Positions 2,796 through 37,228 of a DNA stretch of 40,397 bases are shown one piece after another (the stretch's first letter is position 1; each line of letters begins with the position of its first letter). The stretch is from the IMG/VR virus record IMGVR_UViG_2663763428_000010; one strand, 5' to 3'. The notes beneath the pieces are model-generated. The model was not told the origin of the DNA and made no database searches. It saw only the letters and a program-made list of their open reading frames with translations. The stretch comes from a virus. Its lineage: Duplodnaviria > Heunggongvirae > Uroviricota > Caudoviricetes. A program made the translations under genes and the position numbers.

Positions 2796-3677
2796 TTACA
2801 TAGATGTTTCGTTTAATTCTTCCCGACGAACGCTGTAAACGTCGGTGGCTTTTGCCAGCAGTTCGTCATCATCTGAAAGTTTTTGTGCAATGTATTTGTA
2901 AGCCTTATCCAGTTCGGAGACAGTGCTGTAATTCATCGCTGCGCTGGTAAAGGCCATCAGCATTTCTTCTGGCTCACGGCTATCCGCTTTACGCGTTTGC
3001 TCATCAGGCTTTTTCACTGATTTAGCGTTGATCAGACTGTTCATTCCCGCAGCCGTAGTCATTTGCGGAGTAATGTCTCGCTCAACGCGCGGTGCCGTTT
3101 CCTGTAATTCGTCAGGGGTGTAAACACCGAGAAGTACATCAGGAGCGTGCAGGCGAGCCCATCGTTTCGTGCAAAGATAGGCAAGTTGCTGGCGCGGATC
3201 CTGTTCCCACAATGGAGAGTTACGCACTCCTGCTTGCGCCATACTGATGGTAAGCTCACGTGGTTCTGCTTCTCCTTTAAGAACTGCTGACACAGTTACC
3301 GTCAGATTCGGTGATTTATCTGTTTTGCCGTTAACATTCGACCAGTCACCGCTCCAGCGATAATTCAGGCGTGTCGCCAGCAGGCTGGAAGAGGATACGA
3401 CCGCGTTTACCAACTGTGCTTCGTAGCCTAACGTTCCGTTTACCACATGCGTTTTCTGCGCCACGGCGAAAGGGTTCATTCCCCACTGTGCCGCCTGCAT
3501 GGTCACCGCCAGGCAATCGGCAGGTTTGCCTTCAAGATGTTTCGGTACAGTCGCTTTGCTTTGTGACATCAACTCCGCGAAACGCACCAGTTGATTCATG
3601 CCCTCGGGGCTGAAGATTGCCGCAGCAGTGCCTACAGTTGCGCCTGGTTGTGATGTGATTGCGATATCATTGCTCAT
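2796..3677 (-). CDS. bet: Bet/RecT-superfamily single-strand annealing protein
   Basis: 293 aa; C-terminal ERDITP segment and overall layout resemble lambda Bet as recalled; sits directly downstream of the exonuclease with overlapping stop/start. Confidence 0.7.
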   Translation of the reverse strand: MSNDIAITSQPGATVGTAAAIFSPEGMNQLVRFAELMSQSKATVPKHLEGKPADCLAVTMQAAQWGMNPFAVAQKTHVVNGTLGYEAQLVNAVVSSSSLLATRLNYRWSGDWSNVNGKTDKSPNLTVTVSAVLKGEAEPRELTISMAQAGVRNSPLWEQDPRQQLAYLCTKRWARLHAPDVLLGVYTPDELQETAPRVERDITPQMTTAAGMNSLINAKSVKKPDEQTRKADSREPEEMLMAFTSAAMNYSTVSELDKAYKYIAQKLSDDDELLAKATDVYSVRREELNETSM

Positions 3678-4495
3678 ACGTACATATCCTGTTTACGTGC
3701 CCAGTCAGGGCGTTTAATAATTTCCACTCCGCCCCATTCATCGTTGATGCGGCATTCGTGATAGGTATTCAGATCCCGGCGGAACAGAGCGTGCCCGGCA
3801 TCGACATCCGGCGCATCCAGCTCGAACACGCGTACCGGATACCGACCACAATCAATGCTTTCGCTCACGGCAAGAAAGAAAAAACCATGTGGCTGACCAG
3901 TAACCCTCATTGCGCCTTCGCGGTACATTGCGTCCTGCACGTGGTAGCGGAACTCCTCGATGTGGCGTGCAAAACGGTCCATATCTGCAACCTTTTTCAC
4001 GTCGACGATCACGTTGTGCTCTTTCAGCCATTTGTCTGGACGAATTCGGCACAACTCACCCGTATCTTCATCGTTCCAGTACATTGATGCTTCGCAGTAA
4101 CCAGGTGCTTCCAACATCCAGCGTGCCGCCGGGTGAGCCATTGCGCTATCACGCATCAGCTCCAGTTTTCGCCACTGCTCTGCATCAAGTACCGAAATCC
4201 CCATATCCGCTACATCACGAATAAATGCCTCTTCGTCAGCTTTACCTTGTTTTGTCCGACGATCGAATTTCGGTGAAACGATGAAGCGTTTGTCAAACTC
4301 TCCAGGTTCCAGAAGCAGACAGTGCAGAGCAGTACCCATGTCCAGTGCAGACTTCTTCTCTTCGTCTTCCGGAGCAGCCTTCACCCATTTCAGAAGGGCA
4401 GGGTTCTTAGCCACCATATCTAGCTGCGACTTACTCACGCCGTCACCGGCGTGGTAGTCCTCGTTGCTGATATCGAAATAAATTCCCGGATTCAT
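3674..4495 (-). CDS. PD-(D/E)xK recombination exonuclease (RecE/exonuclease VIII-like)
   Basis: 273 aa; RPD...IVDVKK fits a PD-(D/E)xK motif; N-terminal GIYFDISNEDYHAG segment typical of phage RecE-like exonucleases; paired with bet. Confidence 0.6.
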   Translation of the reverse strand: MNPGIYFDISNEDYHAGDGVSKSQLDMVAKNPALLKWVKAAPEDEEKKSALDMGTALHCLLLEPGEFDKRFIVSPKFDRRTKQGKADEEAFIRDVADMGISVLDAEQWRKLELMRDSAMAHPAARWMLEAPGYCEASMYWNDEDTGELCRIRPDKWLKEHNVIVDVKKVADMDRFARHIEEFRYHVQDAMYREGAMRVTGQPHGFFFLAVSESIDCGRYPVRVFELDAPDVDAGHALFRRDLNTYHECRINDEWGGVEIIKRPDWARKQDMYV

Positions 4496-4796: not shown

Positions 4797-4946
4797 GCCC
4801 TCCCATATCTCGTTATCGTTGGCCACATCGCGAGCTTCTTTGCTGACGAAAGCCCACTTAATGCCTTCCTGTAAGGTGCGGAACTTCCAGCTCATGAATC
4901 CGCATGCAGTAACGCAGTACCAACCGTTGATGATTTTCCACTGCAT
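4797..4946 (-). CDS. Small hypothetical protein (49 aa), first gene of leftward early operon
   Basis: ATG at 4946 preceded by GAGGTAA Shine-Dalgarno that lies inside an operator half-site; TGA stop just before the next gene RBS. Confidence 0.35.
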
Positions 4947-4965
4947 AACTTGTTACCTCGGTCTG

Positions 4966-5042
4966 TTACCGTTGAGGTAATAATTATTCGTATCTGGTTT
5001 GATGTCAATAGATATGAGTTAAAAAAATTACCCATTAGGTAA
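4966..5042 (-). promoter_or_regulatory. Leftward early promoter region with two operator palindromes (4966-4980 TTACCGTTGAGGTAA; 5028-5042 TTACCCATTAGGTAA)
   Basis: Two perfect TTACC-N5-GGTAA palindromes between the repressor terminator and the first leftward gene. Confidence 0.6.
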
Positions 5043-5052
5043 TCGAATAGGC

Positions 5053-5078
5053 AATAAAAAAGCCGCCAGAAGGCGGCT
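5053..5078 (-). terminator. Rho-independent terminator downstream of repressor gene
   Basis: AGCCGCC-AGAA-GGCGGCT hairpin preceded on plus strand by an A-tract (U-tract on minus strand). Confidence 0.65.
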
Positions 5079-5099
5079 TACTTACTGAAAAATATGATT

Positions 5100-5684
5100 T
5101 TATTGTTTGTTTTTTTCGTTCTGGTTGATGACAAATTCAATGTAACTTTCGATCTTTGCTTTCTCGGTTTCGGGTAACAATGCGTAGCGCGAGCGATCAT
5201 AGTTGATGGTCGCAGGGTCGTGCGGGTGAATCAGTAATTCATAGCCGTGACGCCCGAATGCGGATGCAACATTCTCCAGGGTGGAAATGGAAACGCTGAC
5301 CTCATTGTTTAACAGGCGGCTGATTGTCACCTGGGCGACGCCGGATGCGCGGTGAAGTTTTCCCTGTGTTGAAAGGTCGCGGCTTTCGCTCATCCAGCGT
5401 TCCAGGTTGTGAGCCGCAAGCTGACCTATATCGCTCGGGCCGACAGGCTGAAAACCCTCCTGAGAAAGCGAACGATCAATATCAAGCCAGTTACGGGGTT
5501 TATTGGCGGCAGCTTCAATTTTTCGTGCAACCTGGTCGCCGATAACCTTCTTGCCAAGAGCCCAGCGGTTTACCAGATTTGCCTGAGTTCCAAGTTTTTC
5601 TGCCATCCGCGTCTGAACACCATTGAATTCACGGTCGATCAAGTCGTTGAGATTTTGCCTGCGGACGTCCTGGATACTTTTCAT
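5100..5684 (-). CDS. Prophage repressor, tandem HTH_XRE domains, no S24 peptidase domain
   Basis: 194 aa; two Cro/CI-type HTH-like segments; divergent from a Cro-like gene across an operator-rich intergenic region. Confidence 0.7.
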   Translation of the reverse strand: MKSIQDVRRQNLNDLIDREFNGVQTRMAEKLGTQANLVNRWALGKKVIGDQVARKIEAAANKPRNWLDIDRSLSQEGFQPVGPSDIGQLAAHNLERWMSESRDLSTQGKLHRASGVAQVTISRLLNNEVSVSISTLENVASAFGRHGYELLIHPHDPATINYDRSRYALLPETEKAKIESYIEFVINQNEKNKQ

Positions 5685-5739
5685 TTTCTGGAAAATCGCC
5701 TCATATATGAATCAGTAGATGATTCAATTTAAAGCAATA

Positions 5740-5802
5740 TTACCCAACAGGTAAATGCACCCCACAGGTAACTATCCTTGATTTTTGTTACCTTATGGGT
5801 GA
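5740..5802. promoter_or_regulatory. Immunity-region operator cluster with three sites (5740-5754 perfect; 5757-5771 degenerate left half; 5788-5802 near perfect) and divergent promoters
   Basis: TTACCCAACAGGTAA, GCACCCCACAGGTAA, TTACCTTATGGGTGA between divergent repressor and cro-like genes; TTGATT -35-like hexamer at 5778-5783. Confidence 0.65.
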
Positions 5803-5838
5803 ATATTTATTATCTGAAATAAATATCAGGCAATAGCT

Positions 5839-6069
5839 ATGAGCGATAACGGACATTTCGATTTCAAAAAGCACTGGCTTGCACTTACTCCGGATGAGCG
5901 TGAAGCCTTCGCACAGGAAGCCGGAACGACGAGTCACTATATCCAGACTCACTTAACAGGTAAGCGCAAAATGCCAGGTAAGGTATTGATGAATGGGCTT
6001 TTTAAAGCCTGTAAAACAAGACAATGGCTGCGCTCAAAAGCAGAACTGGCATACTTCTTCTACTCATGA
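5839..6069 (+). CDS. Cro-like small DNA-binding protein
   Basis: 76 aa ORF divergent from the repressor, immediately downstream of the operator cluster. Confidence 0.55.
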   Translation: MSDNGHFDFKKHWLALTPDEREAFAQEAGTTSHYIQTHLTGKRKMPGKVLMNGLFKACKTRQWLRSKAELAYFFYS

Positions 6070-6090
6070 TATCCAGCCACAACCCTCTGT

Positions 6091-6116
6091 AGACCGCCAT
6101 CCGGCGGTCTTTTCAT
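6091..6116 (+). terminator. Rho-independent terminator after cro-like gene
   Basis: AGACCGCC-ATCC-GGCGGTCT hairpin followed by TTTTC. Confidence 0.6.
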
Positions 6117-6124
6117 ATCTATTC

Positions 6125-6139
6125 GTACCTCAAAGGTAA
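6125..6139. promoter_or_regulatory. Operator palindrome (GTACCTCAAAGGTAA) upstream of the replication operon
   Basis: Family member of TTACC-N5-GGTAA with one mismatch, directly after the cro terminator. Confidence 0.5.
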
Positions 6140-6219
6140 TAAAAAACCAAATATGGTTGATCTTTTTTTTGTGTCAGCACAAAATAACCGTAATCCCAAT
6201 ACTAATAACAGGGCTTACC

Positions 6220-6420
6220 ATGGAAATCATTACACGTATTGATGCCGCAAAGCGCGGACTTAAACGCTACTACACCGGAAAACCATGTAAGCACGGACAT
6301 GACAGTGAACGCTGGGTTTACAACGGACACTGTGTTGAGTGCACCATGGAATCAAACCGTCGCATCAGGGCAGAGATTAAGCAGATCATGATTAATTCCT
6401 CCCCACAACACTCAAGCTGA
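6220..6420 (+). CDS. Small Cys/His-rich hypothetical protein at the cII-equivalent position
   Basis: 66 aa from ATG at 6220; track ORF begins upstream at a TTG, rejected; PCKHGH...GHCVEC motif. Confidence 0.45.
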   Translation: MEIITRIDAAKRGLKRYYTGKPCKHGHDSERWVYNGHCVECTMESNRRIRAEIKQIMINSSPQHSS

Positions 6421-6435
6421 TAGCGGAGATTAATC

Positions 6436-7251
6436 ATGAGCAGACATGCAACAGATTGGGCCTGGGAGACAGATCCAGGTAGCTCATCATTAAAGCTCAT
6501 ACTGCTCTCGATGGCTGACAGAGCCGATGAATATAACCTCTGCTACCCCAGCATAGAACGCCTCGTTAAAGACACTTGCCTGAATAAAAAAACCGTGCAG
6601 GCCGGGCTTATATCGCTCATGAAAATGGGGCTTATTTCAGATACCGGAGAGAGAAAGGGAGCGACAAAAAGAGTGCGGGTTTTCTCTCTTAATATAACCA
6701 AAAACGGGAACATTAAAGGCAACCGGGAGGGGGGCAATGAACCAGAAAACGGTAATGTTACCGAAAACGGGAATATACCCAAAAACGGGATGTTGAATGA
6801 TCCCAAAAACGGGATGTTGAATGATCCCAAAAACGGGATCCAGAACCAGTCATATAACCAGTCATTTAACCAAGAGAGGGAGAGCAGGACAAAAAACGGG
6901 GATTCTGTGCATCATGACCCCGGCGCAAACAACGCCGTGATGAATAACTTTGTTCCTCCTGGTGGGCCAGGGCAATTAGGCAAATTTGTCATGCATGAAC
7001 AATGGCAGCCATCAGATGACTTTCTTCGGAAAAGCTCATTGCAGGGGATCTACCTGGACAGTCTGCCAACGGCACAGGAACTTGCAGAGTTCAGAATTTA
7101 CTGGATGGCTGAGGGTAAGGCATACCATCAGGCACAGTGGGAGCAGAAGCTGGCAAGGCGGCTGCAGATTAGCAGACAGAAGCAATCAACATTATCTGAT
7201 AACAACGTTCCGCACTGGAACAGCCCTGAAGCATGGGAGGATTTCTTGTGA
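6436..7251 (+). CDS. Replication initiator, lambda O-like, N-terminal HTH
   Basis: 271 aa; N-terminal HTH-like domain; internal iteron-like DNA repeats; stop overlaps the P-like gene start. Confidence 0.7.
   Translation: MSRHATDWAWETDPGSSSLKLILLSMADRADEYNLCYPSIERLVKDTCLNKKTVQAGLISLMKMGLISDTGERKGATKRVRVFSLNITKNGNIKGNREGGNEPENGNVTENGNIPKNGMLNDPKNGMLNDPKNGIQNQSYNQSFNQERESRTKNGDSVHHDPGANNAVMNNFVPPGGPGQLGKFVMHEQWQPSDDFLRKSSLQGIYLDSLPTAQELAEFRIYWMAEGKAYHQAQWEQKLARRLQISRQKQSTLSDNNVPHWNSPEAWEDFL
6697..6841. repeat. Iteron-like direct repeats (core CCAAAAACGGGA) including an exact 24-bp tandem duplication at 6778-6825; candidate replication origin
   Basis: Repeated motif at 6697, 6741, 6759, 6778, 6802, 6826 and 6888; followed by AT-rich repeated CCAGTCAT(A/T)TAACCA. 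Confidence 0.55.
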
Positions 7252-8070: not shown

Positions 8071-8147
8071 TTACCTGTTAGGTAATAAAACATTCTAAAA
8101 TCTATTGATTTCGTGTCTTATGTGGTTTTTAATTACCTCAGAGGTAA
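8071..8147 (+). promoter_or_regulatory. Promoter flanked by two operator palindromes (8071-8085 TTACCTGTTAGGTAA; 8133-8147 TTACCTCAGAGGTAA)
   Basis: -35-like TTGATT 8105-8110, 17-bp spacer, -10-like TTTAAT 8128-8133 overlapping the second operator, whose right half also supplies the GAGG RBS for the ATG at 8151. Confidence 0.55.
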
Positions 8148-11752: not shown

Positions 11753-11778
11753 GCCGCCAACTATGGCGGCTTTATTTT
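11753..11778 (+). terminator. Rho-independent terminator at end of early-right region
   Basis: GCCGCC-AACTAT-GGCGGC hairpin followed by TTTATTTT. Confidence 0.65.
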
Positions 11779-11789
11779 GCATGGTACTA

Positions 11790-11822
11790 TTACCACAACG
11801 GTAACTATTACCACGGTGGTTA
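11790..11822 (+). promoter_or_regulatory. Two operator palindromes immediately upstream of terminase small subunit (11790-11804 TTACCACAACGGTAA; 11808-11822 TTACCACGGTGGTTA)
   Basis: Tandem ACTATTACCAC direct repeats forming two TTACC-N5-GGTAA-type sites; second site abuts the terS start codon. Confidence 0.55.
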
Positions 11823-14540: not shown

Positions 14541-14617
14541 TGGCGTGGCATGCAGGATTCGAACCTGCGACCAACCGCTTAGAAGGCGGTTGCTCTGTCC
14601 AACTGAGCTAATGCCAC
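14541..14617 (-). tRNA. tRNA-Arg, anticodon UCU (reads AGA)
   Basis: Reverse complement folds as full cloverleaf: acceptor GTGGCAT/ATGCCAC, D-arm GCTC...GAGC, anticodon stem ACCGC/GCGGT with loop CTTCTAA, T-arm GCAGG-TTCGAAT-CCTGC, discriminator G and encoded CCA. Confidence 0.85.
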
Positions 14618-14939: not shown

Positions 14940-14954
14940 TTACCTGAAGGGTAA
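14940..14954 (+). promoter_or_regulatory. Operator palindrome (TTACCTGAAGGGTAA) upstream of head gene operon
   Basis: TTACC-N5-GGTAA family member about 90 bp upstream of the ATG at 15045. Confidence 0.5.
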
Positions 14955-19822: not shown

Positions 19823-20146
19823 ATGGAACTCGTAAACCTCAAAACCGGCACTGACAGCTACCAGGATGAGAGCGGAGAAACCAGAACTCGCGATGAATAC
19901 CCGTGGGGGCTGTGCATCAATCTTAATAACGACACATTGAATAAGCTGAAGGCGCAACCTCAGGGCGTCGGAACAGAAGTGATGATAACTGCAAAGGCTG
20001 TTATTCGAGGCCTGTCTGCCAGAGAAACTGACGATGGTGTTAATCGCAGCGCCGATCTGCAGATCACTGATATGGCGATCGCTCATGTTTCCGGGGATGT
20101 AGAAAAATCAGCGGCTGAAACCCTGTACGGCAATGGGGGTGAGTAA
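19823..20146 (+). CDS. Hypothetical virion protein
   Basis: ATG at 19823 with GGAG RBS; track start 19817 less likely. Confidence 0.5.
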   Translation: MELVNLKTGTDSYQDESGETRTRDEYPWGLCINLNNDTLNKLKAQPQGVGTEVMITAKAVIRGLSARETDDGVNRSADLQITDMAIAHVSGDVEKSAAETLYGNGGE

Positions 20147-28555: not shown

Positions 28556-31030
28556 ATGAGACAGGAATGTATACAAGCGGTCCAGCAGGCGGCGCAGCGC
28601 ACGTTAACGGCGCGAGAAATACAGAACATTGAAGACCGCATTTATCGAAATATGCGCTCCATTGCTCGTGATGACCCGATGTCGTGGCGACAACTTTCCG
28701 AATCAGAACGGTTGTATCGTGCAGCACAATTGGCATCTGAAGAATTACAGCGAGAAGCGGCATTAAAGAAACGTCGTGTGGCTCTCACTATAGCCGCACG
28801 TCAGAGATTGGATAAATTTATCAATAGCTATCAAGGGGCTGATGGGAAACTTGGCGCTCTTAACCGTACTATTGCTTTTAATGCAGACGGTAAATCGAAT
28901 TTCCTCTCTGTTGAATCCAGAACAAAAGCCACTCGTGATTATGCATTGAGTCAATTGCAGGAGGCATTTGAAGCAGTTGATCCTCGCTTTTTTGGTCTGT
29001 TTGAAGATGAAGCGGGCGTACGTGACCTGGTATATGAAATGCGGGGGCAAAATACTGGCAATGCTAAAGCAAGAAAAGGTGCTAAGGCGTGGAGAGAAGT
29101 TACAGAGCTGCTGCGCCGCCGGTTTAATGATGCTGGTGGGGACATTGGCTATCTCGAAAACTGGGGGATCCCTCAACATCATTCTATGGAAAAGGTTGGG
29201 GCGGTATCAAAGGATAAGTGGGTTAGCGATGTTATAGGTAAGCTGGATCGCAAATATTATACCCGAGCCGATGGACAACTGATGAACGATGCCGAGTTGT
29301 CTGCATTTCTTGGAGAGGCTTATAACACGATCGCTACTGGTGGGCTGAATAAGCTTACTGATACCGGAATGCGAATTTCCGGCGCACGTGCTAACCGTGG
29401 TAATGCATCACGACAGATACATTTCAAAGATGCAGATTCCTATCTCCAATATCAACAACTTTATGGCGATCGCTCTCTATGGGAAATCATGGTCGGTCAC
29501 CTGGAAGGTATCAGTAAAGATATTTCTCTGGTGGAAACATATGGTCCAAACCCCGATCATGTTTTCCGCTCACTTCTTGATCAGGTTAAGGCAGAAACGG
29601 CAACAGCTAACCCGAGTAAAACCGGTAAAGTCGAGCGGCTGGCGAACAACACAGAGAATCTGTACAACTTTATTTCCGGAAAGACACAGCCTGTAGCGAA
29701 TCCGCACATCGCGCAATGGTCTGACAATATCCGCAACTGGCTGGTTGCCAGCAGACTCGGATCCGCGTTGCTGTCATCGTTCTCTGATCTTGGAACCATG
29801 TATCTGTCTGCGAAGGTGACCAACCTTCCAATGAACCAGTTATTCCGCAACCAGCTTGAAGCTATGGACCCAACGAACCGTACTGAGCTTGCGCGGGCGC
29901 GACGCGCTGGTCTGGCGATGGAATCTCTACTTGGCAGCGTTAACCGCTGGGCGATGGATAATATGGGGCCGTCTGTGTCTCGTTGGGCTGCAACGGCGGT
30001 AATGCGTGCTAGTGGGCTTACAGCATGGTCAGATGCGCACAAGCGCGCCTATGGCGTAACCATGATGGGAAGCCTGGGAGAAGTAGTGTCACGGACACCA
30101 GACCTTCATAGCCTCGATGATTCTGATTTTCGTATCCTGAAAAGCAAAGGGATTACTGACACAGACTGGAGCGTATGGAGGCTGGCGCAACAGGAGGACT
30201 GGGGGAACGGCAATAATACGATGTTGACACCGGAAAGCATTATGCGTATCCCTGATTCAGCAGTTAAACATCTTGGTGAGCCTGAACGCGTGAAATTTGA
30301 GGCAATGCGTAAATTGCTCGGTGCCGTAACTGAAGAAGTTGATATGGCTGTTATTACACCGGGAGCACGTGAGCAACTGATAACTGGTTCTGGTATTCAG
30401 CGTGGAACATGGAAAGGTGAATTAACGAGAAGTGTTTTCCTGTTTAAATCGTTCCCTATCTCGGTGGTTATGCGTCACTGGTCACGCGCTATGGGTATGC
30501 CGTCTGCTGGTGGGCGTGCGGCATATATTGCGACGTTTATTGCCAGTACGACCATTCTTGGCGCTTTGTCGCAGCAACTTAACGACCTTGCGTCTGGTCG
30601 TAATCCTCGAGAGATGACAGGAGAAGATGCCGCAAAATTCTGGCTTGGTGCTCTACTGAAAGGTGGTGGTCTTGGCCTTTACGGTGACTTTTTATTGTCA
30701 GATCACACTAGGTACGGAAGCGGCGCGCTGGCGTCGATGCTTGGCCCGGTAGCTGGTCTGGTTGATGACGTAGTGAAGATTGCTCAGGGCATACCGTTAA
30801 ATGCTGTGGAAGGGAAGAATGAGCAGACTGGTGGTGATCTGGTTAAGCTGGGGAAAGGTTTGATGCCTGGTGCGAATCTCTGGTACTTGAAGGCGGCTCT
30901 CGATCACATGATCTTTAACCAGATGCAGGAGTATTTTTCACCAGGCTATTTGCGTAAAATGGAGCAACGTTCGAAGAAAGAGTTTAACCAGACATACTGG
31001 TGGAGACCTCAGGATGTCACTCCGCAATAA
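28556..31030 (+). CDS. Internal virion / ejection protein (large)
   Basis: 824 aa ORF completing the ejection-protein block. Confidence 0.55.
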   Translation: MRQECIQAVQQAAQRTLTAREIQNIEDRIYRNMRSIARDDPMSWRQLSESERLYRAAQLASEELQREAALKKRRVALTIAARQRLDKFINSYQGADGKLGALNRTIAFNADGKSNFLSVESRTKATRDYALSQLQEAFEAVDPRFFGLFEDEAGVRDLVYEMRGQNTGNAKARKGAKAWREVTELLRRRFNDAGGDIGYLENWGIPQHHSMEKVGAVSKDKWVSDVIGKLDRKYYTRADGQLMNDAELSAFLGEAYNTIATGGLNKLTDTGMRISGARANRGNASRQIHFKDADSYLQYQQLYGDRSLWEIMVGHLEGISKDISLVETYGPNPDHVFRSLLDQVKAETATANPSKTGKVERLANNTENLYNFISGKTQPVANPHIAQWSDNIRNWLVASRLGSALLSSFSDLGTMYLSAKVTNLPMNQLFRNQLEAMDPTNRTELARARRAGLAMESLLGSVNRWAMDNMGPSVSRWAATAVMRASGLTAWSDAHKRAYGVTMMGSLGEVVSRTPDLHSLDDSDFRILKSKGITDTDWSVWRLAQQEDWGNGNNTMLTPESIMRIPDSAVKHLGEPERVKFEAMRKLLGAVTEEVDMAVITPGAREQLITGSGIQRGTWKGELTRSVFLFKSFPISVVMRHWSRAMGMPSAGGRAAYIATFIASTTILGALSQQLNDLASGRNPREMTGEDAAKFWLGALLKGGGLGLYGDFLLSDHTRYGSGALASMLGPVAGLVDDVVKIAQGIPLNAVEGKNEQTGGDLVKLGKGLMPGANLWYLKAALDHMIFNQMQEYFSPGYLRKMEQRSKKEFNQTYWWRPQDVTPQ

Positions 31031-31039
31031 GGAAGTGTT

Positions 31040-31213
31040 GTGTTTTTAATTATTTTGAGTGTGATAATTTCTGGTGGATTGTTATTTATTGACCGCTACA
31101 AATATTTTCTTAACCCTCAGACTCAAGCTATTTGCTGGTTCATCTTTGCTGTGCAGGGAGTAGTTCTTGTTGCAAGCCTTATTGAGGGGAGGCCTCTTAT
31201 TTTTATTGGGTAA
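31040..31213 (+). CDS. Small hydrophobic protein candidate (57 aa, two predicted TM helices)
   Basis: GTG start with GGAAG RBS; below the 60 aa track threshold, read directly from sequence. Confidence 0.3.
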   Translation: MFLIILSVIISGGLLFIDRYKYFLNPQTQAICWFIFAVQGVVLVASLIEGRPLIFIG

Positions 31214-31225
31214 ATAGGTGACTAC

Positions 31226-31522
31226 ATGCAAGCTATAGGATTCATTGTTTATATCGTCGTTGGTCTTTTTCAGTTGGCAGCAATTATGGCTGGGCTTGAA
31301 TCATGGTGGGGATTGCACTGGATAATTGCAGCCCCCATTGCTTTCATCGTGAGCTATATTCCATTTGTTGGAGCGATTGTTGGTATGGTTGGCGCTGTGG
31401 ATGTATGGCGGTGGGAGTGGTGGCAGGCTGGCCTTCTATTCTTTGGTGGGATAATCTTTGCTATTGTCTGCGGTGGAATGTCATCATTTTTCGAATGGCT
31501 ATCATTCAGAAAAGGGACGTGA
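31226..31522 (+). CDS. Integral membrane protein (moron; possible superinfection exclusion)
   Basis: 98 aa, three to four hydrophobic helices, Trp-rich; AGGTGA RBS; stop inside GTGACATGTCAC palindrome. Confidence 0.55.
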   Translation: MQAIGFIVYIVVGLFQLAAIMAGLESWWGLHWIIAAPIAFIVSYIPFVGAIVGMVGAVDVWRWEWWQAGLLFFGGIIFAIVCGGMSSFFEWLSFRKGT

Positions 31523-31530
31523 CATGTCAC
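31519..31530. repeat. Exact 12-bp palindrome GTGACATGTCAC, copy 3 of 3
   Basis: Direct read; overlaps stop codon and abuts the terminator. Confidence 0.9.
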
Positions 31531-31556
31531 AGGCCGCTTTCGCGGCCTTGTTTTTA
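31531..31556 (+). terminator. Rho-independent terminator
   Basis: AGGCCGC-TTTC-GCGGCCT hairpin followed by TGTTTTTA. Confidence 0.7.
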
Positions 31557-31715
31557 ACGAATGCCACCGCCGCCCGGGCGGGAATCCGCAGAACGCCCAC
31601 CGCAGCGGGAGCCGTCAGCGGCAGTATCGCTGTCGTGCTGACAACGGCCGGCAAAGGCCTGAGTTGAAGCTACCAGAGACAACAAAACGAACAGTGCAGC
31701 AAATGCTTTTTTCAT
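31554..31715 (-). CDS. Small signal-peptide protein candidate
   Basis: MKKAFAALFVLLSLVASTQAFA signal-like N-terminus followed by a short GC-rich Cys-containing tail; weak RBS. Confidence 0.25.
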   Translation of the reverse strand: MKKAFAALFVLLSLVASTQAFAGRCQHDSDTAADGSRCGGRSADSRPGGGGIR

Positions 31716-31798
31716 TGTGAAAAATTTCCATCTATAAGCCACCTCAATGTGGCGTCAATGAGTGTAGCACTGACTTTTGTTTCGTCCATAAAAAACTA

Positions 31799-32311
31799 CT
31801 ATGCAGGCTTTTTGGATTTGTACGAATAATCCCACGGATAAACATTTCTACTAAGTGGAGCTGTATTCGTTCGTTCATGAAATAATTTTGTGAAATTCAA
31901 TACGGAATCCATCCAAACTTTTGCGTTAGCTTTGGTGTGTGCGGGCGGGTCCCAATAAGCTAGTAAGGCTGCATCTCTTATTTCATTGACTGCATATATG
32001 AGATATGCGTTACTGGTTGGTTTTGGCCTGTAATTTCCTTGTTCATCAATCAATCCATATGACCACTCATCCCAACACTGTTCAGTACATGAGTATGAAT
32101 ATGATGCATATTCACCAATATTGACATGAACCTTTCTGAGATGGAAGCCTAATACTTCCTCTGGTCTTTCAAAAAGAGTATCTTTTCCCAGATCAGGATG
32201 ATGACCATGACGCCAGTGTTGTTTAAAAGCATCTTTTAGCGAAATCAGAAAGTCATCAGTTTTAAACTCACCAGTAGGTATAACCTTCCCGCTATACTCA
32301 CTCAAAAACAT
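31799..32311 (-). CDS. Toxin-like protein, tentatively YafO-family
   Basis: 170 aa; segments HGHHPDLGKDTLF, LRKVHVNI and TSNAYLIY...LLAYWDPPAH resemble E. coli YafO as recalled from memory; ATG embedded in the end of the upstream gene with GGAAGAGGAA RBS. Confidence 0.45.
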   Translation of the reverse strand: MFLSEYSGKVIPTGEFKTDDFLISLKDAFKQHWRHGHHPDLGKDTLFERPEEVLGFHLRKVHVNIGEYASYSYSCTEQCWDEWSYGLIDEQGNYRPKPTSNAYLIYAVNEIRDAALLAYWDPPAHTKANAKVWMDSVLNFTKLFHERTNTAPLSRNVYPWDYSYKSKKPA

Positions 32312-32624
32312 CGAATTCCTCTTCCTTCATATGCGTTTCTAATGAGTTAAGCTGGCGGAAAGATATCTCTTTTGATTCTGCAGATGAGAGTTTTTTTATC
32401 CGCTTTATATTCTTTGTGATAGGAATAGACATTGTATGCACATCAGCGGATGCTCTTGGCTTTGTGCTGATAAAAATATGGCGCAATGCCGCATTTTCAC
32501 TATTGAACGAGCCAATAGCTGATTTACGTGCTACAACCTTACCAGTAAAAATACGACTCTTGCTACGCTTTGCATGAGTTCCGCTTCTTACCGGACCTCT
32601 CATCACGAATCCAAGTTTTGTCAT
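32298..32624 (-). CDS. Basic small protein, candidate partner/antitoxin of the downstream toxin-like gene
   Basis: 108 aa; GGAG RBS; overlaps the downstream gene by 14 nt; acidic C-terminus EEEFDVFE. Confidence 0.45.
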   Translation of the reverse strand: MTKLGFVMRGPVRSGTHAKRSKSRIFTGKVVARKSAIGSFNSENAALRHIFISTKPRASADVHTMSIPITKNIKRIKKLSSAESKEISFRQLNSLETHMKEEEFDVFE

Positions 32625-32666
32625 CTTTAATCTCCGGTAAGTTACAGGTATAAAATAAAAACAGGT

Positions 32667-32681
32667 TTACCTTTAAGGTAA
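32667..32681 (-). promoter_or_regulatory. Operator palindrome (TTACCTTTAAGGTAA) upstream of the two-gene toxin-like operon
   Basis: Perfect TTACC-N5-GGTAA about 45 bp upstream of the start at 32624, in an AT-rich promoter-like region. Confidence 0.5.
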
Positions 32682-32753
32682 TAGTACGCTATTCACCCCC
32701 GGTCTGCAATCTGTACAGAATTATTTAAAGGCACATCCCTGTGCCGCCGCCCG

Positions 32754-33464
32754 TCAGAAGAACCCTGCCTTGTCGTTGATGTACTCCGCGTGCGTCTGGA
32801 TATCACGCAGGCATTTACTCACACCGACGATGTAGCAGAACATGGTGGTCAGCTCCGCCGCCGCGCCCGATACGTCGTGCCCGTCGTCCTGCAACTGATT
32901 CAGCAGATTCATCAGCAATGAGTTCTCCGTCAGGCCGAGAACACCAGACGGCGAATGAATCAGACTGCGGTAGCCGGGCTTCAGTGGGGCACTGTAGGTT
33001 TTGTTCTCTATCTTCATTGCCTGCATCACTGCTGACGCCGTGGCGTTGGCTACCTGGTCGGCAACCATCTTTATGCGTTCTTCCTGCGGGAACGAGTTTT
33101 TAATGTAGCTTCCTGTTCGACGGATCTGAGGAAGTACCTCACCTGTAACCCATTTACGAAAGCGGTAGGGGATAGTGCCTAGTGTCACTGCGTCGCGGCA
33201 GCGGAGGATCAGTGTGTAGAGGCCTGACTCGGAGATGATGTTGATCTCTTTTACTCGGCTGTCAAAAATTGCACGATGTTCATGCCCTATGTTGAACATA
33301 GACCTTTCATCATCATCCAGTTTTTCAAGTGCTTGGGTGACGTTTTGGATACGCAGCGCACTACAAACGTCTTGGGCTACAAACCATGGTTGGCCATCGA
33401 TAATGATGGAACGGATAGGGTTAACAGATTCAAATTTGAAGATGGCAGTTTGAGCATTAGCCAT
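32754..33464 (-). CDS. Bro-N domain antirepressor-like protein
   Basis: N-terminal Bro-N-like segment; ATG at 33464 with GGAG RBS; C-terminal domain homologous to the small protein at 34613-34870. Confidence 0.65.
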   Translation of the reverse strand: MANAQTAIFKFESVNPIRSIIIDGQPWFVAQDVCSALRIQNVTQALEKLDDDERSMFNIGHEHRAIFDSRVKEINIISESGLYTLILRCRDAVTLGTIPYRFRKWVTGEVLPQIRRTGSYIKNSFPQEERIKMVADQVANATASAVMQAMKIENKTYSAPLKPGYRSLIHSPSGVLGLTENSLLMNLLNQLQDDGHDVSGAAAELTTMFCYIVGVSKCLRDIQTHAEYINDKAGFF

Positions 33465-33733
33465 GGTGGTTATCTCCACTTAGTGATTTTAATCACCACC
33501 GCAACGCCAATTACTGGTGGTGAACTGGACAAGGTTGGCGTACCGGCCTAAGTGGTACCGGTGTCCTTTCGGACCCCTGCCCAGCCCACCATAATTCGGA
33601 TATAGCTGTGCTTAACGCATAAAAAAACCACGTCTGGCGTGGTATGCGCCACTTAGTAACCCGGGACGCCAATCCCGGCACTGGATTTTGCCAGTGCCCG
33701 ATTACTATGGCACAAGAGGAGTGCGATGTAAAT

Positions 33734-33748
33734 TTACCGCAAAGGTAA
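33734..33748 (-). promoter_or_regulatory. Operator palindrome (TTACCGCAAAGGTAA) upstream of antirepressor gene
   Basis: Perfect TTACC-N5-GGTAA in the long leader upstream of the Bro-N gene. Confidence 0.5.
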
Positions 33749-33826
33749 TGATAAGCGCGGATAAATATTAAAATCAACCGTATTTGGTTGATTACGTTTA
33801 ACGCTTGATCACCTGAAAGCAAGATA

Positions 33827-33841
33827 TTACCTTTAAGGTAA
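33827..33841 (+). promoter_or_regulatory. Operator palindrome (TTACCTTTAAGGTAA) upstream of membrane zinc-ribbon gene
   Basis: Perfect palindrome 20 bp upstream of ATG 33862; TTGATC -35-like hexamer at 33804-33809. Confidence 0.5.
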
Positions 33842-33861
33842 TGTTATTGTGAGGAAAAGCA

Positions 33862-34590
33862 ATGGAAGTTTTCTGGATAGTTGTTGGTGTGGTTGCGGTG
33901 ATTATTTACGTTATCAACCAGAACAAGACTAAGATCTCTGATCGTACGGTCGTTAATCATAACAAAACGATAAAGACCGAAGATGGGGAGATAACGATTA
34001 ATCGTACACAGGTGATAGAACACACCTCTACTCAGTTTCAAAAAACTGGAGGTAATGCGCCTGATATTTCCGCACCTCCTGCTTATGATAGTGCGGTAAT
34101 CCAGACATATTATAAACAGCAGGAGTTAGCAAAAGAGAGGCAACTGATTCAGCCAAAGCCGTTTACAGCTGAGCTTCCACCTGGAGTGTCAACGCGTCCG
34201 GCATATCATGGAAGATTCCCTGGTGATGACATATCGTCTCAGTCATCTAAAAAAGCACCTCAGGCAGTATCAGAGCCAGCAAGAATAACTTCTGTATCGC
34301 CGCCAAAAGAAGAATCAGCTAACAGAGTTTCAAGTGGTAGCAAGCAGTGCTTGCGATGCAGAATAAACCTTCCATATGAAAAATTCAGGAAATCGTCAAA
34401 AAATCCAGATGGATTGACTAAGTGGTGTGCAAGGTGTCTCGATGGCCCAAAGAATACACGCCATATGAAGTGGTGCCCAATTTGTAATGTCCGCAGAAAA
34501 CGAACCAGCTTTTACCCTAATAATCAAAATGCGGACGGCTTAATGGCATGGTGCAAAACGTGCTGGGATGAGCACAAAGCGAAACGATAG
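33862..34590 (+). CDS. Membrane-anchored protein with two tandem C4 zinc-ribbon repeats
   Basis: 242 aa; N-terminal TM helix; two repeats of CxxC-x21/22-CxxC sharing DGL...WC...C. Confidence 0.6.
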   Translation: MEVFWIVVGVVAVIIYVINQNKTKISDRTVVNHNKTIKTEDGEITINRTQVIEHTSTQFQKTGGNAPDISAPPAYDSAVIQTYYKQQELAKERQLIQPKPFTAELPPGVSTRPAYHGRFPGDDISSQSSKKAPQAVSEPARITSVSPPKEESANRVSSGSKQCLRCRINLPYEKFRKSSKNPDGLTKWCARCLDGPKNTRHMKWCPICNVRRKRTSFYPNNQNADGLMAWCKTCWDEHKAKR

Positions 34591-34614
34591 GCCGCTCTTG
34601 CGGCCTTTAAATTT
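34589..34614. terminator. Hairpin terminator between convergent genes
   Basis: AGGCCGC-TCTT-GCGGCCT followed by TTAAATTT. Confidence 0.45.
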
Positions 34615-34870
34615 ACCGGGTTTGTTTTCGTAATTGTTCGGCACAATAGTCGAGATGTGTTTGCAGATCCCGCATAGACATCTGTGAGCTGGTGACGTAG
34701 TTAATCAGTGCAGTCAGTTCGGCAAGTGGGCCATCGACATTAAATCCATCCTTATCGAGATCCCGGAGTAATTTCATCAAGTGCGATCCCTCCACCAGTG
34801 ACCTGACGCCTCCCGGCGTGTGAATCCTTTCGGTAAATCCGTCTTCCAGTGGATAGTGATACTGCTGCAT
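34613..34870 (-). CDS. Small protein paralogous to the C-terminal domain of the Bro-N antirepressor
   Basis: 85 aa from ATG at 34870 with GGAGAAG RBS; alignable by eye to Bro-N protein residues about 150-235 (shared LRDIQTH / MRDLQTH block). Confidence 0.55.
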   Translation of the reverse strand: MQQYHYPLEDGFTERIHTPGGVRSLVEGSHLMKLLRDLDKDGFNVDGPLAELTALINYVTSSQMSMRDLQTHLDYCAEQLRKQTR

Positions 34871-34946
34871 CTTATCTTCTCCATGCAATAACTGTATATT
34901 TATACAGTATCAAATAATTTGTTTGCTATCCAGCACGTTTTGCAAA

Positions 34947-34961
34947 TCACCTGAAAGGTAA
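34947..34961. promoter_or_regulatory. Operator palindrome variant (TCACCTGAAAGGTAA) between small Bro-C paralog and tailspike
   Basis: One-mismatch family member in the divergent intergenic region 34871-35065. Confidence 0.45.
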
Positions 34962-35065
34962 TATCTATTCGTATTTACAGCCTTTCTATCCATATATGGT
35001 TTTTCAGGTAATAGAATAACCAGATATGCGGCGCAACGGGTGCTGCGGCTATCTGGAGATTTAAC

Positions 35066-37228
35066 ATGACGGTCTCAACCGAAGTTAACCACAACGAATA
35101 CACAGGTAATGGTGTTACGACCACATTCCCTTACACCTTTAGGGTTTTCAATAAATCTGATCTGGTGGTGCAGGTGATTGACCTTGAAGAAAATATCGCT
35201 GTGCTGGCTCCTGATACTGATTACACAGTTACCGGGGCGGGAAGCTATTCAGGTGGGAGCGTTGTGTTGATGTCACCTCTGGCCAACGGATGGCAAATCT
35301 CTATCTCACGTGACTTGCCTGTTACCCAGGAGACTGATCTGCGTAACCAGGGGAAATTTTTCGCAGAGGTACATGAGGATGCGTTCGACAAGCTGACCAT
35401 GCTTATCCAGCAGTGCTTCAGCTTTCTCCGCCTGGCGCTGCGTAAGCCGTCGTTCATCGCGAACTATTACGACGCACTCAACAACCGCATTCGTAATCTG
35501 CGTGACCCGTCACAGGCACAGGATGCAGCAACAAAATCTTATGTGGACTCGGGAGATAATGACAGCACTCATCATGCAGATGGTCTTTTCCAGCGAACTT
35601 TGCGAGTTCCGGAAAGTCAGGTAGGAATCATGGCATCTGTACGAGCCAGAGCAAATATGCTGATTGGATTCAATGACCAGGGGGATCCTGTTCCGATTGC
35701 AGGGCAAACTGAAACGGCAGATTTGGCAATCAAGCTAGCATCAAAAGACGGTGCTGGCTTAGTTGCTACGGAAACAGGAAGAACGGTAGAGGCTTCTATT
35801 CGTGCTGCGTCTGGATCATCACAGGCCCTTTTCCCAAATTTCGTCAATAAATTAACAGCTTATCGGCATGGGGTTTCTGGCTATCAGAACTTATTTCGAC
35901 TCTATGGGTTTGGTTCTTCTGTTGGGGTTGGTGCTACGCTTCCTGATCCAGCAACACAGGCACCAGTTGCTAAATTTTTTGAGTATATGAACGATACGCT
36001 AAATAAGCAGCGTATTTATCCCATTAACTTCACAAACAAATCTGTTAATGGTTCAACGATAAATAATTTTATTGTTAACCAATGGCCTGAAGTTGTTGCT
36101 GAAGGAATATATCCTGATATTGCTTTGTTTATATATGGAATGAATGATTTTCCTACCGCACAATATAATGCCGGGCAAACATTCAATGAAAACGGATTTA
36201 AACAGCGCCTTCGAAATGCTATTAATTTAGTCAGGGAGGCCGGCGGGGATGTTGTGCTAACAACCACACCTCATCCGAATATTTCTGAATATAGCTGGAG
36301 CATGCCGGCTGGAATTTCTCAAATATGGCCTTCATATTCTCCGGCCCCAGTCTCTGATAATAACATTATACCATCTGCCGCAAACTCAAATGTCACGTTT
36401 GAGTGGAATGGGGTAAATATTCAAGCAGGTGTCCGCTTCCTTCGAGGAAACGATGCGATCAGGAAAATCGCTGTAGAAATGGGTTGCGTGCTTATCGATG
36501 TGGAAAAATACTGGTTTGATGCTGTTGCTAAATATGGTGAAACGGCATTATTTGACCGGACCCCTGAAATACAGACTGTTCACCCTAACCTTTTAGGTCA
36601 TCAGCAATCATACTGGCTGGCTTTCGAGGATTTCTTTAGAAATCTGGACAGGAACGGATGGATTCCTGCAGTTGCAAATCATTATGATGTTTTTGATGTC
36701 GGTGGAAAAGCGACTTTCCCTAATCCACGTACTGCAGATATTGATCTGCAGAGCAACGGGATCAGAGATAATGCATACATTCATCGAGATCAATTTGCTC
36801 GTCCTCTACTGACAATCGGTCATACTGGCGTGAGAACCAAGACCTGGTATACCTCTCAAGACCCTGCAGCAAATGCAGGTTATAGCATTAGCTGGATAGA
36901 TTACGGAACTCGTTTTCAAGGTCTGGTAAATACAGGTGAAGTCAAATCCATCGCAATACCAAACAGAACGACGCAGAGAATCCTTATCGATGCTTGGTCT
37001 TCTGCACAAAACACCTGGGCTGAATGTTTAGAGCTACTCGTTGCTAACCGTGAGGGTACCATTTCAATATCGATCACAGGTGAACTCGATACCACTCCAC
37101 CGGCGGGGGGCGGAACGTCAGGCGGACGGCGCTTATTCTCTATTTCAGCGGGGAGTGGTGTATTAAACATAACTGTTAATGTTGATCTCTCTACGCTAAA
37201 AGTTAGAGTCGGCGGTTTCAGCGCTTAA
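35066..37228 (+). CDS. Tailspike / tail fiber with T7 gp17-like N-terminal adaptor and SGNH esterase-like domain
   Basis: 720 aa; N-terminus NHNEYTGNGVTTTFPYTF typical of T7-type fiber N-domains; SGNH-like blocks GFGSS, GMND and VHPN. Confidence 0.75.
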   Translation: MTVSTEVNHNEYTGNGVTTTFPYTFRVFNKSDLVVQVIDLEENIAVLAPDTDYTVTGAGSYSGGSVVLMSPLANGWQISISRDLPVTQETDLRNQGKFFAEVHEDAFDKLTMLIQQCFSFLRLALRKPSFIANYYDALNNRIRNLRDPSQAQDAATKSYVDSGDNDSTHHADGLFQRTLRVPESQVGIMASVRARANMLIGFNDQGDPVPIAGQTETADLAIKLASKDGAGLVATETGRTVEASIRAASGSSQALFPNFVNKLTAYRHGVSGYQNLFRLYGFGSSVGVGATLPDPATQAPVAKFFEYMNDTLNKQRIYPINFTNKSVNGSTINNFIVNQWPEVVAEGIYPDIALFIYGMNDFPTAQYNAGQTFNENGFKQRLRNAINLVREAGGDVVLTTTPHPNISEYSWSMPAGISQIWPSYSPAPVSDNNIIPSAANSNVTFEWNGVNIQAGVRFLRGNDAIRKIAVEMGCVLIDVEKYWFDAVAKYGETALFDRTPEIQTVHPNLLGHQQSYWLAFEDFFRNLDRNGWIPAVANHYDVFDVGGKATFPNPRTADIDLQSNGIRDNAYIHRDQFARPLLTIGHTGVRTKTWYTSQDPAANAGYSISWIDYGTRFQGLVNTGEVKSIAIPNRTTQRILIDAWSSAQNTWAECLELLVANREGTISISITGELDTTPPAGGGTSGGRRLFSISAGSGVLNITVNVDLSTLKVRVGGFSA

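Follow-up and report, generated by a model that had tools for sequence, protein, structure and literature searches.

The stretch of DNA analysed here (the window, 40,397 nucleotides in length) is a phiV10/epsilon15-type (Uetakevirus) prophage of E. coli and belongs to the epsilon15-like podoviruses. The region from 4900 to 6500 is 98% identical to phiV10 and its relatives and 100% identical to several E. coli chromosomes, and the immunity region is found in 562 of 5426 complete E. coli genomes (~10%). Two divergent genes lie within this region, one encoding the 194-residue repressor Rep (5100..5684, minus strand) and the other encoding a small 76-residue HTH protein in the position of cro (5839..6069, plus strand), a homologue of PhiV10p41 that will be referred to as gp41. 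The two genes are separated by a gap of 154 bp.

Palindromes and candidate promoters in the rep/gp41 gap

Within the 154-bp gap a pattern search located three palindromes. Site 1 (5740-5754, TTACCCAACAGGTAA) lies on the repressor-gene side and matches TTACC-N5-GGTAA with no mismatches. Site 2 (5757-5771, GCACCCCACAGGTAA) reads GCACC-N5-GGTAA, with two mismatches that both fall in the left half, and site 3 (5788-5802, TTACCTTATGGGTGA) reads TTACC-N5-GGTGA, with a single mismatch in the right half. The site centres are at 5747, 5764 and 5795, giving spacings of 17 and 31 bp, and sites 1 and 2 directly adjoin each other when they are taken as 17-mers. The initial annotation had reported three sites of this quality (perfect, left-half degenerate, and near perfect) at these spacings, and a reading of the sequence and the pattern search both agree with that description. 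Three sites with two or fewer mismatches were observed in the gap compared with 0.07 in shuffled sequences, and three were reached in 0 of 5000 shuffles. The two-mismatch site 2 has no significance by itself; it is validated by its position exactly 17 bp from site 1 in all nine relatives described below and by the invariance of its ACC...GGTAA bases.

The rightward promoter, PR, has a candidate -35 element TTGATT (5778-5783, plus strand), which as TTGATTT is invariant in the nine relatives, and a candidate -10 element GAATAT (5801-5806) that follows a 17-bp spacer, shares 3 of its 6 positions with TATAAT and aligns with AATAAT of the epsilon15 group. Site 3 takes up the whole 17-bp spacer after TTGATT as well as 2 bp of GAATAT, so the earlier placement of this site between the -35 and -10 elements of PR holds, with the addition that it runs into the candidate -10 element. 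A promoter tool predicted another rightward promoter, TTGTTA(5785)-17-TATTAT(5808-5813). TTGATT is preferred as the -35 element because it is invariant, whereas TTGTTA-17-TATTAT is not conserved in the epsilon15 group. In the leftward direction the sole conserved candidate for a rep promoter (5726..5755, minus strand) consists of TTTACC (5755-5750), a spacer of 17 or 18 bp, and TTAAAT or TAAATT (5732-5726). Its -35 element is the right half of site 1, and site 1 overlaps both the -35 element and the spacer. The best -10 reading, TAAATT with the 18-bp spacer, matches at 4 of 6 positions (8 of 12 for the whole promoter), and GGTAAA and AATT.AA of this region are conserved. The hexamers of PR and of the rep promoter are weak, and both are treated here as candidates only. 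Counted from the candidate start of rep, the centre of site 1 would fall near -28 and that of site 2 near -45; counted from the candidate PR start, the centre of site 3 would fall near -18. A search for LexA boxes found none in or near this operator region (OR), and direct action of LexA at the switch is therefore not expected.

Conservation and distribution of the motif

The gap was aligned across nine genomes, which were the window, Tyrion, epsilon15, SPC32H, and five enterobacterial prophages from Superficieibacter, Erwinia dacicola, Klebsiella pneumoniae, Citrobacter werkmanii, and Scandinavium. A sixth bacterial genome (L090) lies outside the alignment, and its same sites were seen by scan only. 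The Rep proteins of the relatives are 41-78% identical to that of the window; because MKSI..RR/NLVNRW was the seed of the scan for relatives, the same recognition helix is kept by all full-length relatives. Matches to Rep in Paraburkholderia, Hydrogenovibrio, and Thiomicrospira were limited to the N-terminal domain and came without the motif and without the gene context.

The three-site layout is kept across the nine-genome alignment. The invariant columns are TTACC and GGTAAA at site 1, ACC and GGTAA at site 2, TTGATTT, and ACC and GGT.A at site 3, whereas variation is seen in the N5 spacers and at most flanking positions. Relative to the ATG of rep the sites start at -70, -86/87 and -116/118 in the six bacterial genomes, and in epsilon15, SPC32H, and Tyrion the three sites occupy the same alignment columns. 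The left half of site 2 is TTACC in the epsilon15 group and degenerate in the window, the PR site (site 3) is imperfect in all nine relatives, and the degenerate half of sites 2 and 3 differs by lineage. Variation at a finer scale was followed in 80 IMG/VR loci with a 100% identical Rep, which comprise 16 variants of the gap. Substitutions within the sites fall in the N5 spacers only (5762 and 5764-5766 in site 2, 5797 in site 3), and no half-site polymorphism was found among these 80 loci. Such a pattern is the footprint that would be expected of a dimeric HTH protein that contacts a pair of 5-bp half-sites separated by one helical turn. The proposal that operator-type sites lie between the divergent repressor gene and the cro-positioned HTH gene is supported.

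The motif is not confined to the switch. In a scan of all inverted repeats of the form 5-N5-5 in the window, TTACC was a clear outlier with 10 exact copies (any other arm had two or fewer), compared with 0.04 expected from base composition and 0.001 in shuffled non-coding DNA. The exact copies start at 4966, 5028, 5740, 8071, 8133, 11790, 14940, 32667, 33734, and 33827, and copies with one mismatch start at 5788, 6125, 11808, and 34947. A further one-mismatch copy at 35229, within the tail-fibre gene, is probably a chance match. All 10 exact copies fall in non-coding DNA, which makes up ~6% of the window, at the heads of transcription units. An apparent exception within coding sequence at the small terminase is an artefact of an ORF listed with an upstream TTG extension, and a second, ORF 33511..33822, was discarded as a coding gene since its place is taken by two Rfam RNAs, isrK and C4. 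The palindrome described initially for the switch is real and is not special to the switch, since it recurs at about nine other intergenic control regions.

Several of these copies lie at early promoters. The candidate leftward promoter PL (TTGACA-17-AATTAT, 4980..5008, minus strand; TTGACA at 5008-5003, AATTAT at 4985-4980) has 10 of 12 consensus matches, and its sequence TGTCAATAG is invariant in seven relatives. An exact, promoter-proximal operator (4966..4980) overlaps the -10/+1 region of PL, and an exact, distal operator (5028..5042) lies 62 bp from it. A candidate third early promoter, which is conserved, is composed of TTGATT (8106-8111), a 17-bp spacer, and TTTAAT (8129-8134). Here too there is a 62-bp pair, with the distal site at 8071..8085, upstream of gene 8151, and the proximal site at 8133..8147 overlapping the -10 element TTTAAT. 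Both 62-bp pairs thus bracket conserved promoters. Among adjacent sites in the nine genomes the spacing is 62 bp in 15 of 41 cases, 17/18 bp in 8 and 30/31 bp in 4. As 62 bp is close to six helical turns, the paired sites would be on the same face of the DNA. Past the terminator that follows the cro-like gene there is a one-mismatch site, GTACC-N5-GGTAA (6125..6139), with a counterpart in Tyrion at 35365.

The remaining copies are located farther along the window. Two sites 18 bp apart (11790..11822), one exact and one with one mismatch, lie immediately upstream of the small terminase gene, and this pair is also present in Tyrion and in epsilon15 (at 12 and 30, the first of which is annotated 'repressor'). 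The site at 14940..14954 is upstream of the gp3/portal gene block, and its epsilon15 counterpart (2931-2947) is annotated 'repressor', as is the counterpart (19895-19911) of the one-mismatch site at 34947..34961 between ant and the tail-fibre gene. Additionally, one site (32667..32681) is intergenic between 32298..32624 and 32754..33479 (both minus strand), one (33734..33748) is upstream of the isrK/C4-like RNAs and the second antirepressor gene discussed below, and one (33827..33841) is in the divergent region that precedes gene 33862.

The epsilon15 record provides a direct comparison. In RefSeq NC_004775.2 there are seven features labelled 'protein_bind: repressor, lysogeny', and when extracted all seven were found to be ATTACC-N5-GGTAAT. 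One precedes terS, one gp3/portal and one the resolvase gene; another separates gp19 (the Ant homologue) from the tail fibre, and three lie between gp37 and the repressor gene (OL). They correspond in position to sites of the window. Epsilon15, with gp38 as its repressor, therefore carries the identical palindrome at matching genome positions (terS, gp3, tail-fibre region, OL, and resolvase), with three sites at OL compared with two in the window. The repressor gp38 and the annotated binding sites are reportedly described in Kropinski et al. 2007. No operators are annotated in the gap between the repressor gene and gp39 in the epsilon15 record, and the gap still has three sites, at 33341 and 33358 (both perfect) and 33388 (TCACC), with spacings of 17 and 30 bp. 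The phiV10 stretch 28887-36487, immunity region included, has no annotated operators.

Repressor, cro-like protein and antirepressors

The Rep of the window is 100% identical to that of phiV10, whose record lists the leftward ORF as a 'putative transcriptional repressor, two helix-turn-helix motifs' and the rightward ORF as 'hypothetical'. A phmmer search matched residues 1-190 of Rep to chain A of PDB 5D50, the SPC32H Rep-Ant complex (E 4e-42, ~43% identity), and Rep also matched PDB 5D4Z, a fragment of SPC32H Rep comprising residues 92-198 (E 4e-20). By homology with SPC32H Rep, the protein would be composed of an N-terminal HTH domain, an HTH_3-like dimerisation domain, and a C-terminal domain for tetramerisation and Ant binding, the C-terminal part being homologous to the MDD/CAD of SPC32H Rep. 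Pfam places HTH_3 at residues 106-147 and a weak YdaS-type HTH at residues 21-61. Of the two HTH domains ascribed to the repressor at the outset, both are thus present as HTH-like segments; that both read DNA is not supported, since the second is the dimerisation module by homology with SPC32H Rep. The repressor had also been described as having no autocleavage domain, and in agreement with this no Pfam match to Peptidase_S24 was found in Rep. All four aligned Reps have the same putative recognition helix, (Q/S)(A/Q)NLVNRW, which fits with a half-site common to the relatives.

In SPC32H Rep, as described in the literature, the N-terminal domain binds DNA, the middle domain mediates dimerisation, and the C-terminal domain serves both tetramerisation and Ant binding (PMC9986798). 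Palindromic sites are bound by the Rep tetramer with paired DNA-binding domains that come from different dimers, and tetrameric Ant splits Rep into dimers (PMC9986798, PMC9638917). In phage ZX5, which has a repressor reported to be identical to that of phiV10, overexpression of the repressor abolished free phage and lowered the holin and endolysin mRNA levels by >99.9% (PMC9782041).

The 76-residue gp41 belongs to PHROG 35, 'transcriptional repressor' (5.6e-13). It had no match in Pfam or NCBIfam, and the best hit of a PDB profile search had an E value of 0.88. An AF2 model (pLDDT 81.6) has five helices, and its fold neighbours are YdaS (a Cro analogue), the DNA-binding domain of the 434 repressor, and the C-proteins of restriction-modification systems (probability 0.8-0.87, E>1). 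The label 'Cro-like' is reasonable given the modelled fold and the position of the gene. Cro-like proteins usually bind the same operators as their repressors, and gp41 may occupy the OR sites instead of Rep in the lytic state.

A small antirepressor, Ant, is encoded at 34613..34888 (minus strand). It is 87% identical to SPC32H Ant and falls in PHROG 450, and a perfect LexA box (CTGTATATTTATACAG, 34892..34907) is located immediately upstream of ant. A second antirepressor, fused to a BRO-N domain, is also present in the window behind isrK/C4-like RNAs identified with Rfam. By analogy with SPC32H, induction is expected to proceed through the LexA-controlled antirepressor and not through cleavage of Rep.

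Probable Rep operators and the lysogenic switch

We consider it likely, with a probability of roughly 0.85, that the three palindromes are Rep operators (OR) that control the divergent promoters of a phiV10/epsilon15-type temperate podovirus. The assignment of the motif to Rep draws on GenBank annotation, secondary descriptions and comparative genomics. It is thought that (A)TTACC-N5-GGTAA(T) is recognised by pairs of N-terminal HTH domains of Rep, which by homology with SPC32H Rep would act as a tetramer. Rep bound at site 3 would fill the spacer of PR (TTGATT-17-GAATAT) and block expression of the cro-like and replication genes. A single tetramer, with its four DNA-binding domains, might occupy both site 1 and site 2, which adjoin as 17-mers. 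Since together the two sites cover the candidate -35 element and spacer of the rep promoter, autoregulation of rep is probable. Rep would also bind about nine further operator loci, among them PL, the third early promoter, and those before the terminase, the portal, the tail-fibre/ant region, and the second antirepressor, with the consequence that most lytic transcription units would be silenced directly. Following DNA damage, LexA would leave its box at 34892-34907 and Ant would be made; Ant would then dismantle the Rep tetramer and remove Rep from the DNA.

Among the closest known systems is that of SPC32H. The Rep/Ant/LexA lytic switch of this phage is reportedly the subject of Kim & Ryu 2013 (J Virol) and Kim et al. 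2016 (PNAS). SPC32H and the window share full-length homology of Rep, the order of rep and a divergent small gene, the three-site OR, Ant, and the LexA box before ant. They differ in that the window is from E. coli as host and has a diverged immunity-region sequence. Site 2 is perfect and site 3 is TCACC in SPC32H, whereas the left half of site 2 is degenerate in the window, and the window, unlike SPC32H, has the second, BRO-N-fused antirepressor behind isrK/C4-like RNAs. At the level of sequence, every feature that marks the Rep-operator-Ant-LexA system of SPC32H and epsilon15 is found in the window: a full-length Rep homologue, the operator palindrome, a three-site array at a fixed distance from the rep ATG, and a small Ant with a LexA box. 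The switch system was already known, since the motif is annotated in epsilon15 and Rep, Ant and the LexA box are homologous to those of SPC32H, and the window is an orthologous member of this switch type and not a new lambda-like variant.

The initial annotation had compared the sites with the OR1/OR2/OR3 logic of lambda. In such a graded switch, cooperating repressor dimers would fill the three sites in order of affinity; the strongest site would shut the lytic promoter first, the middle one would activate the repressor promoter, and the weakest would shut the repressor promoter at high repressor levels. The geometry is similar, as three palindromes lie between the divergent repressor gene and a gene that is cro-type by fold and position. 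They overlap PR and may also overlap the rep promoter, whose candidate is a weak consensus match, and at about -45 of this candidate site 2 would be placed where activators can act. Relative to lambda, however, the ranking of the sites by quality is the opposite, with the perfect site on the candidate rep promoter at the repressor side and an imperfect PR site in every relative. The degenerate sites differ by lineage, and epsilon15 has two perfect sites. In addition, the half-site differs from that of lambda and the spacing is 17/31 bp compared with 24/23 bp in lambda, so that sites 1 and 2 abut at 17 bp and are not ~24 bp apart. Two traits of the lambda type are absent, namely an S24 repressor and a strongest site at the lytic promoter, as judged by consensus match and not by affinity. 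Rep has no S24/lambda-type C-terminal domain, is predicted to be non-cleavable and tetrameric by homology, and would be inactivated by an antirepressor. The homologue of known structure is tetrameric, with DNA-binding domains from different dimers paired. The lambda logic is thus not upheld, and we regard a graded switch of this kind as unlikely.

It could also be asked whether the main ligand of the sites is another phage regulator, such as the cro-like gp41 or a gp49-like, PerC-like or AlpA-like protein. The phage encodes several small DNA-binding proteins, Cro proteins normally share the operators of their repressors, and a late regulator might be expected to use sites ahead of structural genes. 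Against this, the features in the epsilon15 record name the repressor as the ligand, binding to palindromic sites has been reported for SPC32H Rep (PMC9638917), and overexpression of the repressor alone silences lytic genes (PMC9782041). The sites also overlap core elements of the early promoters, as would be expected for repression, and a principal ligand other than Rep appears quite improbable.

The inverted repeats might instead act in RNA, as hairpins for termination, processing or antitermination. A hairpin of 5-7 bp can form at each perfect site, and one copy was flagged by a terminator scan. This reading has very little to recommend it: the hairpins are of low stability (-1 to -5 kcal/mol) and lack a U-tract, site 2 barely pairs, the loops are not conserved, and the 5-bp arms do not vary even in sites that can no longer pair. 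The sites also lie upstream of or inside promoters and not in transcripts. Host-factor sites are given equally little weight, and chance is excluded by the enrichment statistics from base composition and shuffles.

Other phages resemble the Rep operator system in single respects. P1 C1 and L5 gp71 are likewise single repressors with many scattered sites, including sites before late or structural genes, and the window also has an immI-like c4-ant module. The stoperators of L5 gp71 are asymmetric, orientation-dependent, and located inside transcription units, whereas the sites in the window are symmetric, intergenic, and located at promoters. In Gifsy-1/3, Fels-2, 186 (Tum), and N15 (AntC) a LexA-controlled antirepressor inactivates a non-cleavable repressor, as is proposed for the window, but the repressor and antirepressor folds are unrelated to those of the window, where Ant is of the small SPC32H type.

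How Rep tetramers might be distributed over these operators can be considered more tentatively. It is possible, if doubtful, that they act as promoter clamps, each holding either two abutting 17-mers (sites 1 and 2 of OR, and the terS pair) or two sites at 62 bp that bracket a promoter (PL and the promoter at 8.1 kb). Site 3, which would be left as an orphan, might then be held by a tetramer that bridges through a loop to another operator, either site 2 (31 bp away), the site at 6125, or OL. If true, this arrangement would amount to a looped, genome-wide silencing network that directly covers the late and structural genes and both antirepressor modules, and to our knowledge a clamp or loop architecture has not been described for enterobacterial podoviruses.

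The operator map does not overturn existing concepts. The SPC32H papers are also said to list a palindromic Rep operator consensus, and if they do, the new part is the phiV10-specific map and the spacing rules only. The value of the map is mainly one of annotation, as about 15 Rep sites, PR, PL, the Ant/LexA module, and the second, c4-type module together give a working regulatory map for the genus, and phiV10-type phages serve as O157 typing and reporter phages. The way in which a tetrameric 'trans'-pairing repressor engages DNA had not been extensively characterised as of 2023 (PMC9986798), and the rigid 62-bp pairs and the abutting 17-mers lead to a testable prediction of that engagement.

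Spacing and sequence variation of the Rep operators

The operator pairs at 4966/5028 and 8071/8133 are separated by a rigid 62 bp (centre to centre) and bracket conserved promoters. Pairs 62 bp apart are also found in the sequences of six relatives used in the comparison (L002, L003 and L085-L088), and this is the most frequent spacing between adjacent operators in the nine genomes (15 of 41). The 62-bp spacing suggests that one Rep tetramer bridges the two sites on the same face of the DNA.

Among 80 metagenome and genome loci encoding an identical Rep, the N5 spacer of site 2 (5762-5766), with 3-4 variable positions, is the most polymorphic part of the entire gap between the repressor and cro-like genes. 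Position 5797 in the N5 spacer of site 3 is also variable, and the half-sites beside these spacers have zero changes in the same loci.

Recombination, replication and packaging genes

The RecT-like and RecE/exonuclease-like genes (2796..3677 and 3674..4495, both on the minus strand) are separate, overlapping ORFs, whereas the phiV10 record has one fused 'recET' CDS of 1761 bp; this contrast may reflect a frameshift or an annotation difference.

Directly 3' of the cro-like gene is a rho-independent terminator (6091-6110), beyond which are an operator with one mismatch (6125-6139) and TTGATC-17-CAAAAT (6157-6185), which may be a promoter. Transcription of the replication genes may therefore either begin at a separate entry point controlled by Rep or depend on read-through.

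The gp49-like regulator gene is followed by a hairpin that is rich in GC and has a T-run (about 11753-11783). Directly after this hairpin come two Rep sites with an 18-bp spacing, just ahead of the small terminase start (11753-11822 for hairpin and sites). It appears that the packaging/late block is insulated and under direct repression. A tRNA-Arg (anticodon TCT; 14541-14617, minus strand) lies between the terminase and portal genes, and a tRNA-Arg is found in the corresponding position in SPC32H.

Two antirepressor loci

The small antirepressor Ant has 87% identity with SPC32H Ant, and its gene is preceded by a perfect LexA box, CTGTATATTTATACAG (34892-34907; 34613-34907 with the gene). Between ant and the tail-fibre gene there is also a Rep site with one mismatch, at 34947.

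A second antirepressor gene (32754..33479, minus strand) encodes a BRO-N-type Ant domain fused to a C-terminal small-Ant-family domain (PHROG 450). Upstream are two minus-strand RNAs identified with Rfam, a C4 antisense RNA (33513-33596, 63.6 bits) and an isrK-like RNA (33621-33697, 67.7 bits), and farther upstream are perfect Rep palindromes at 33734 and 33827. The 103-aa 'ORF' at 33511..33822 is probably not a gene; the two RNAs occupy the same stretch. Together, the RNAs (33513-33697), the antirepressor gene and the operators look like a P1 immI-type c4-ant module under Rep control.
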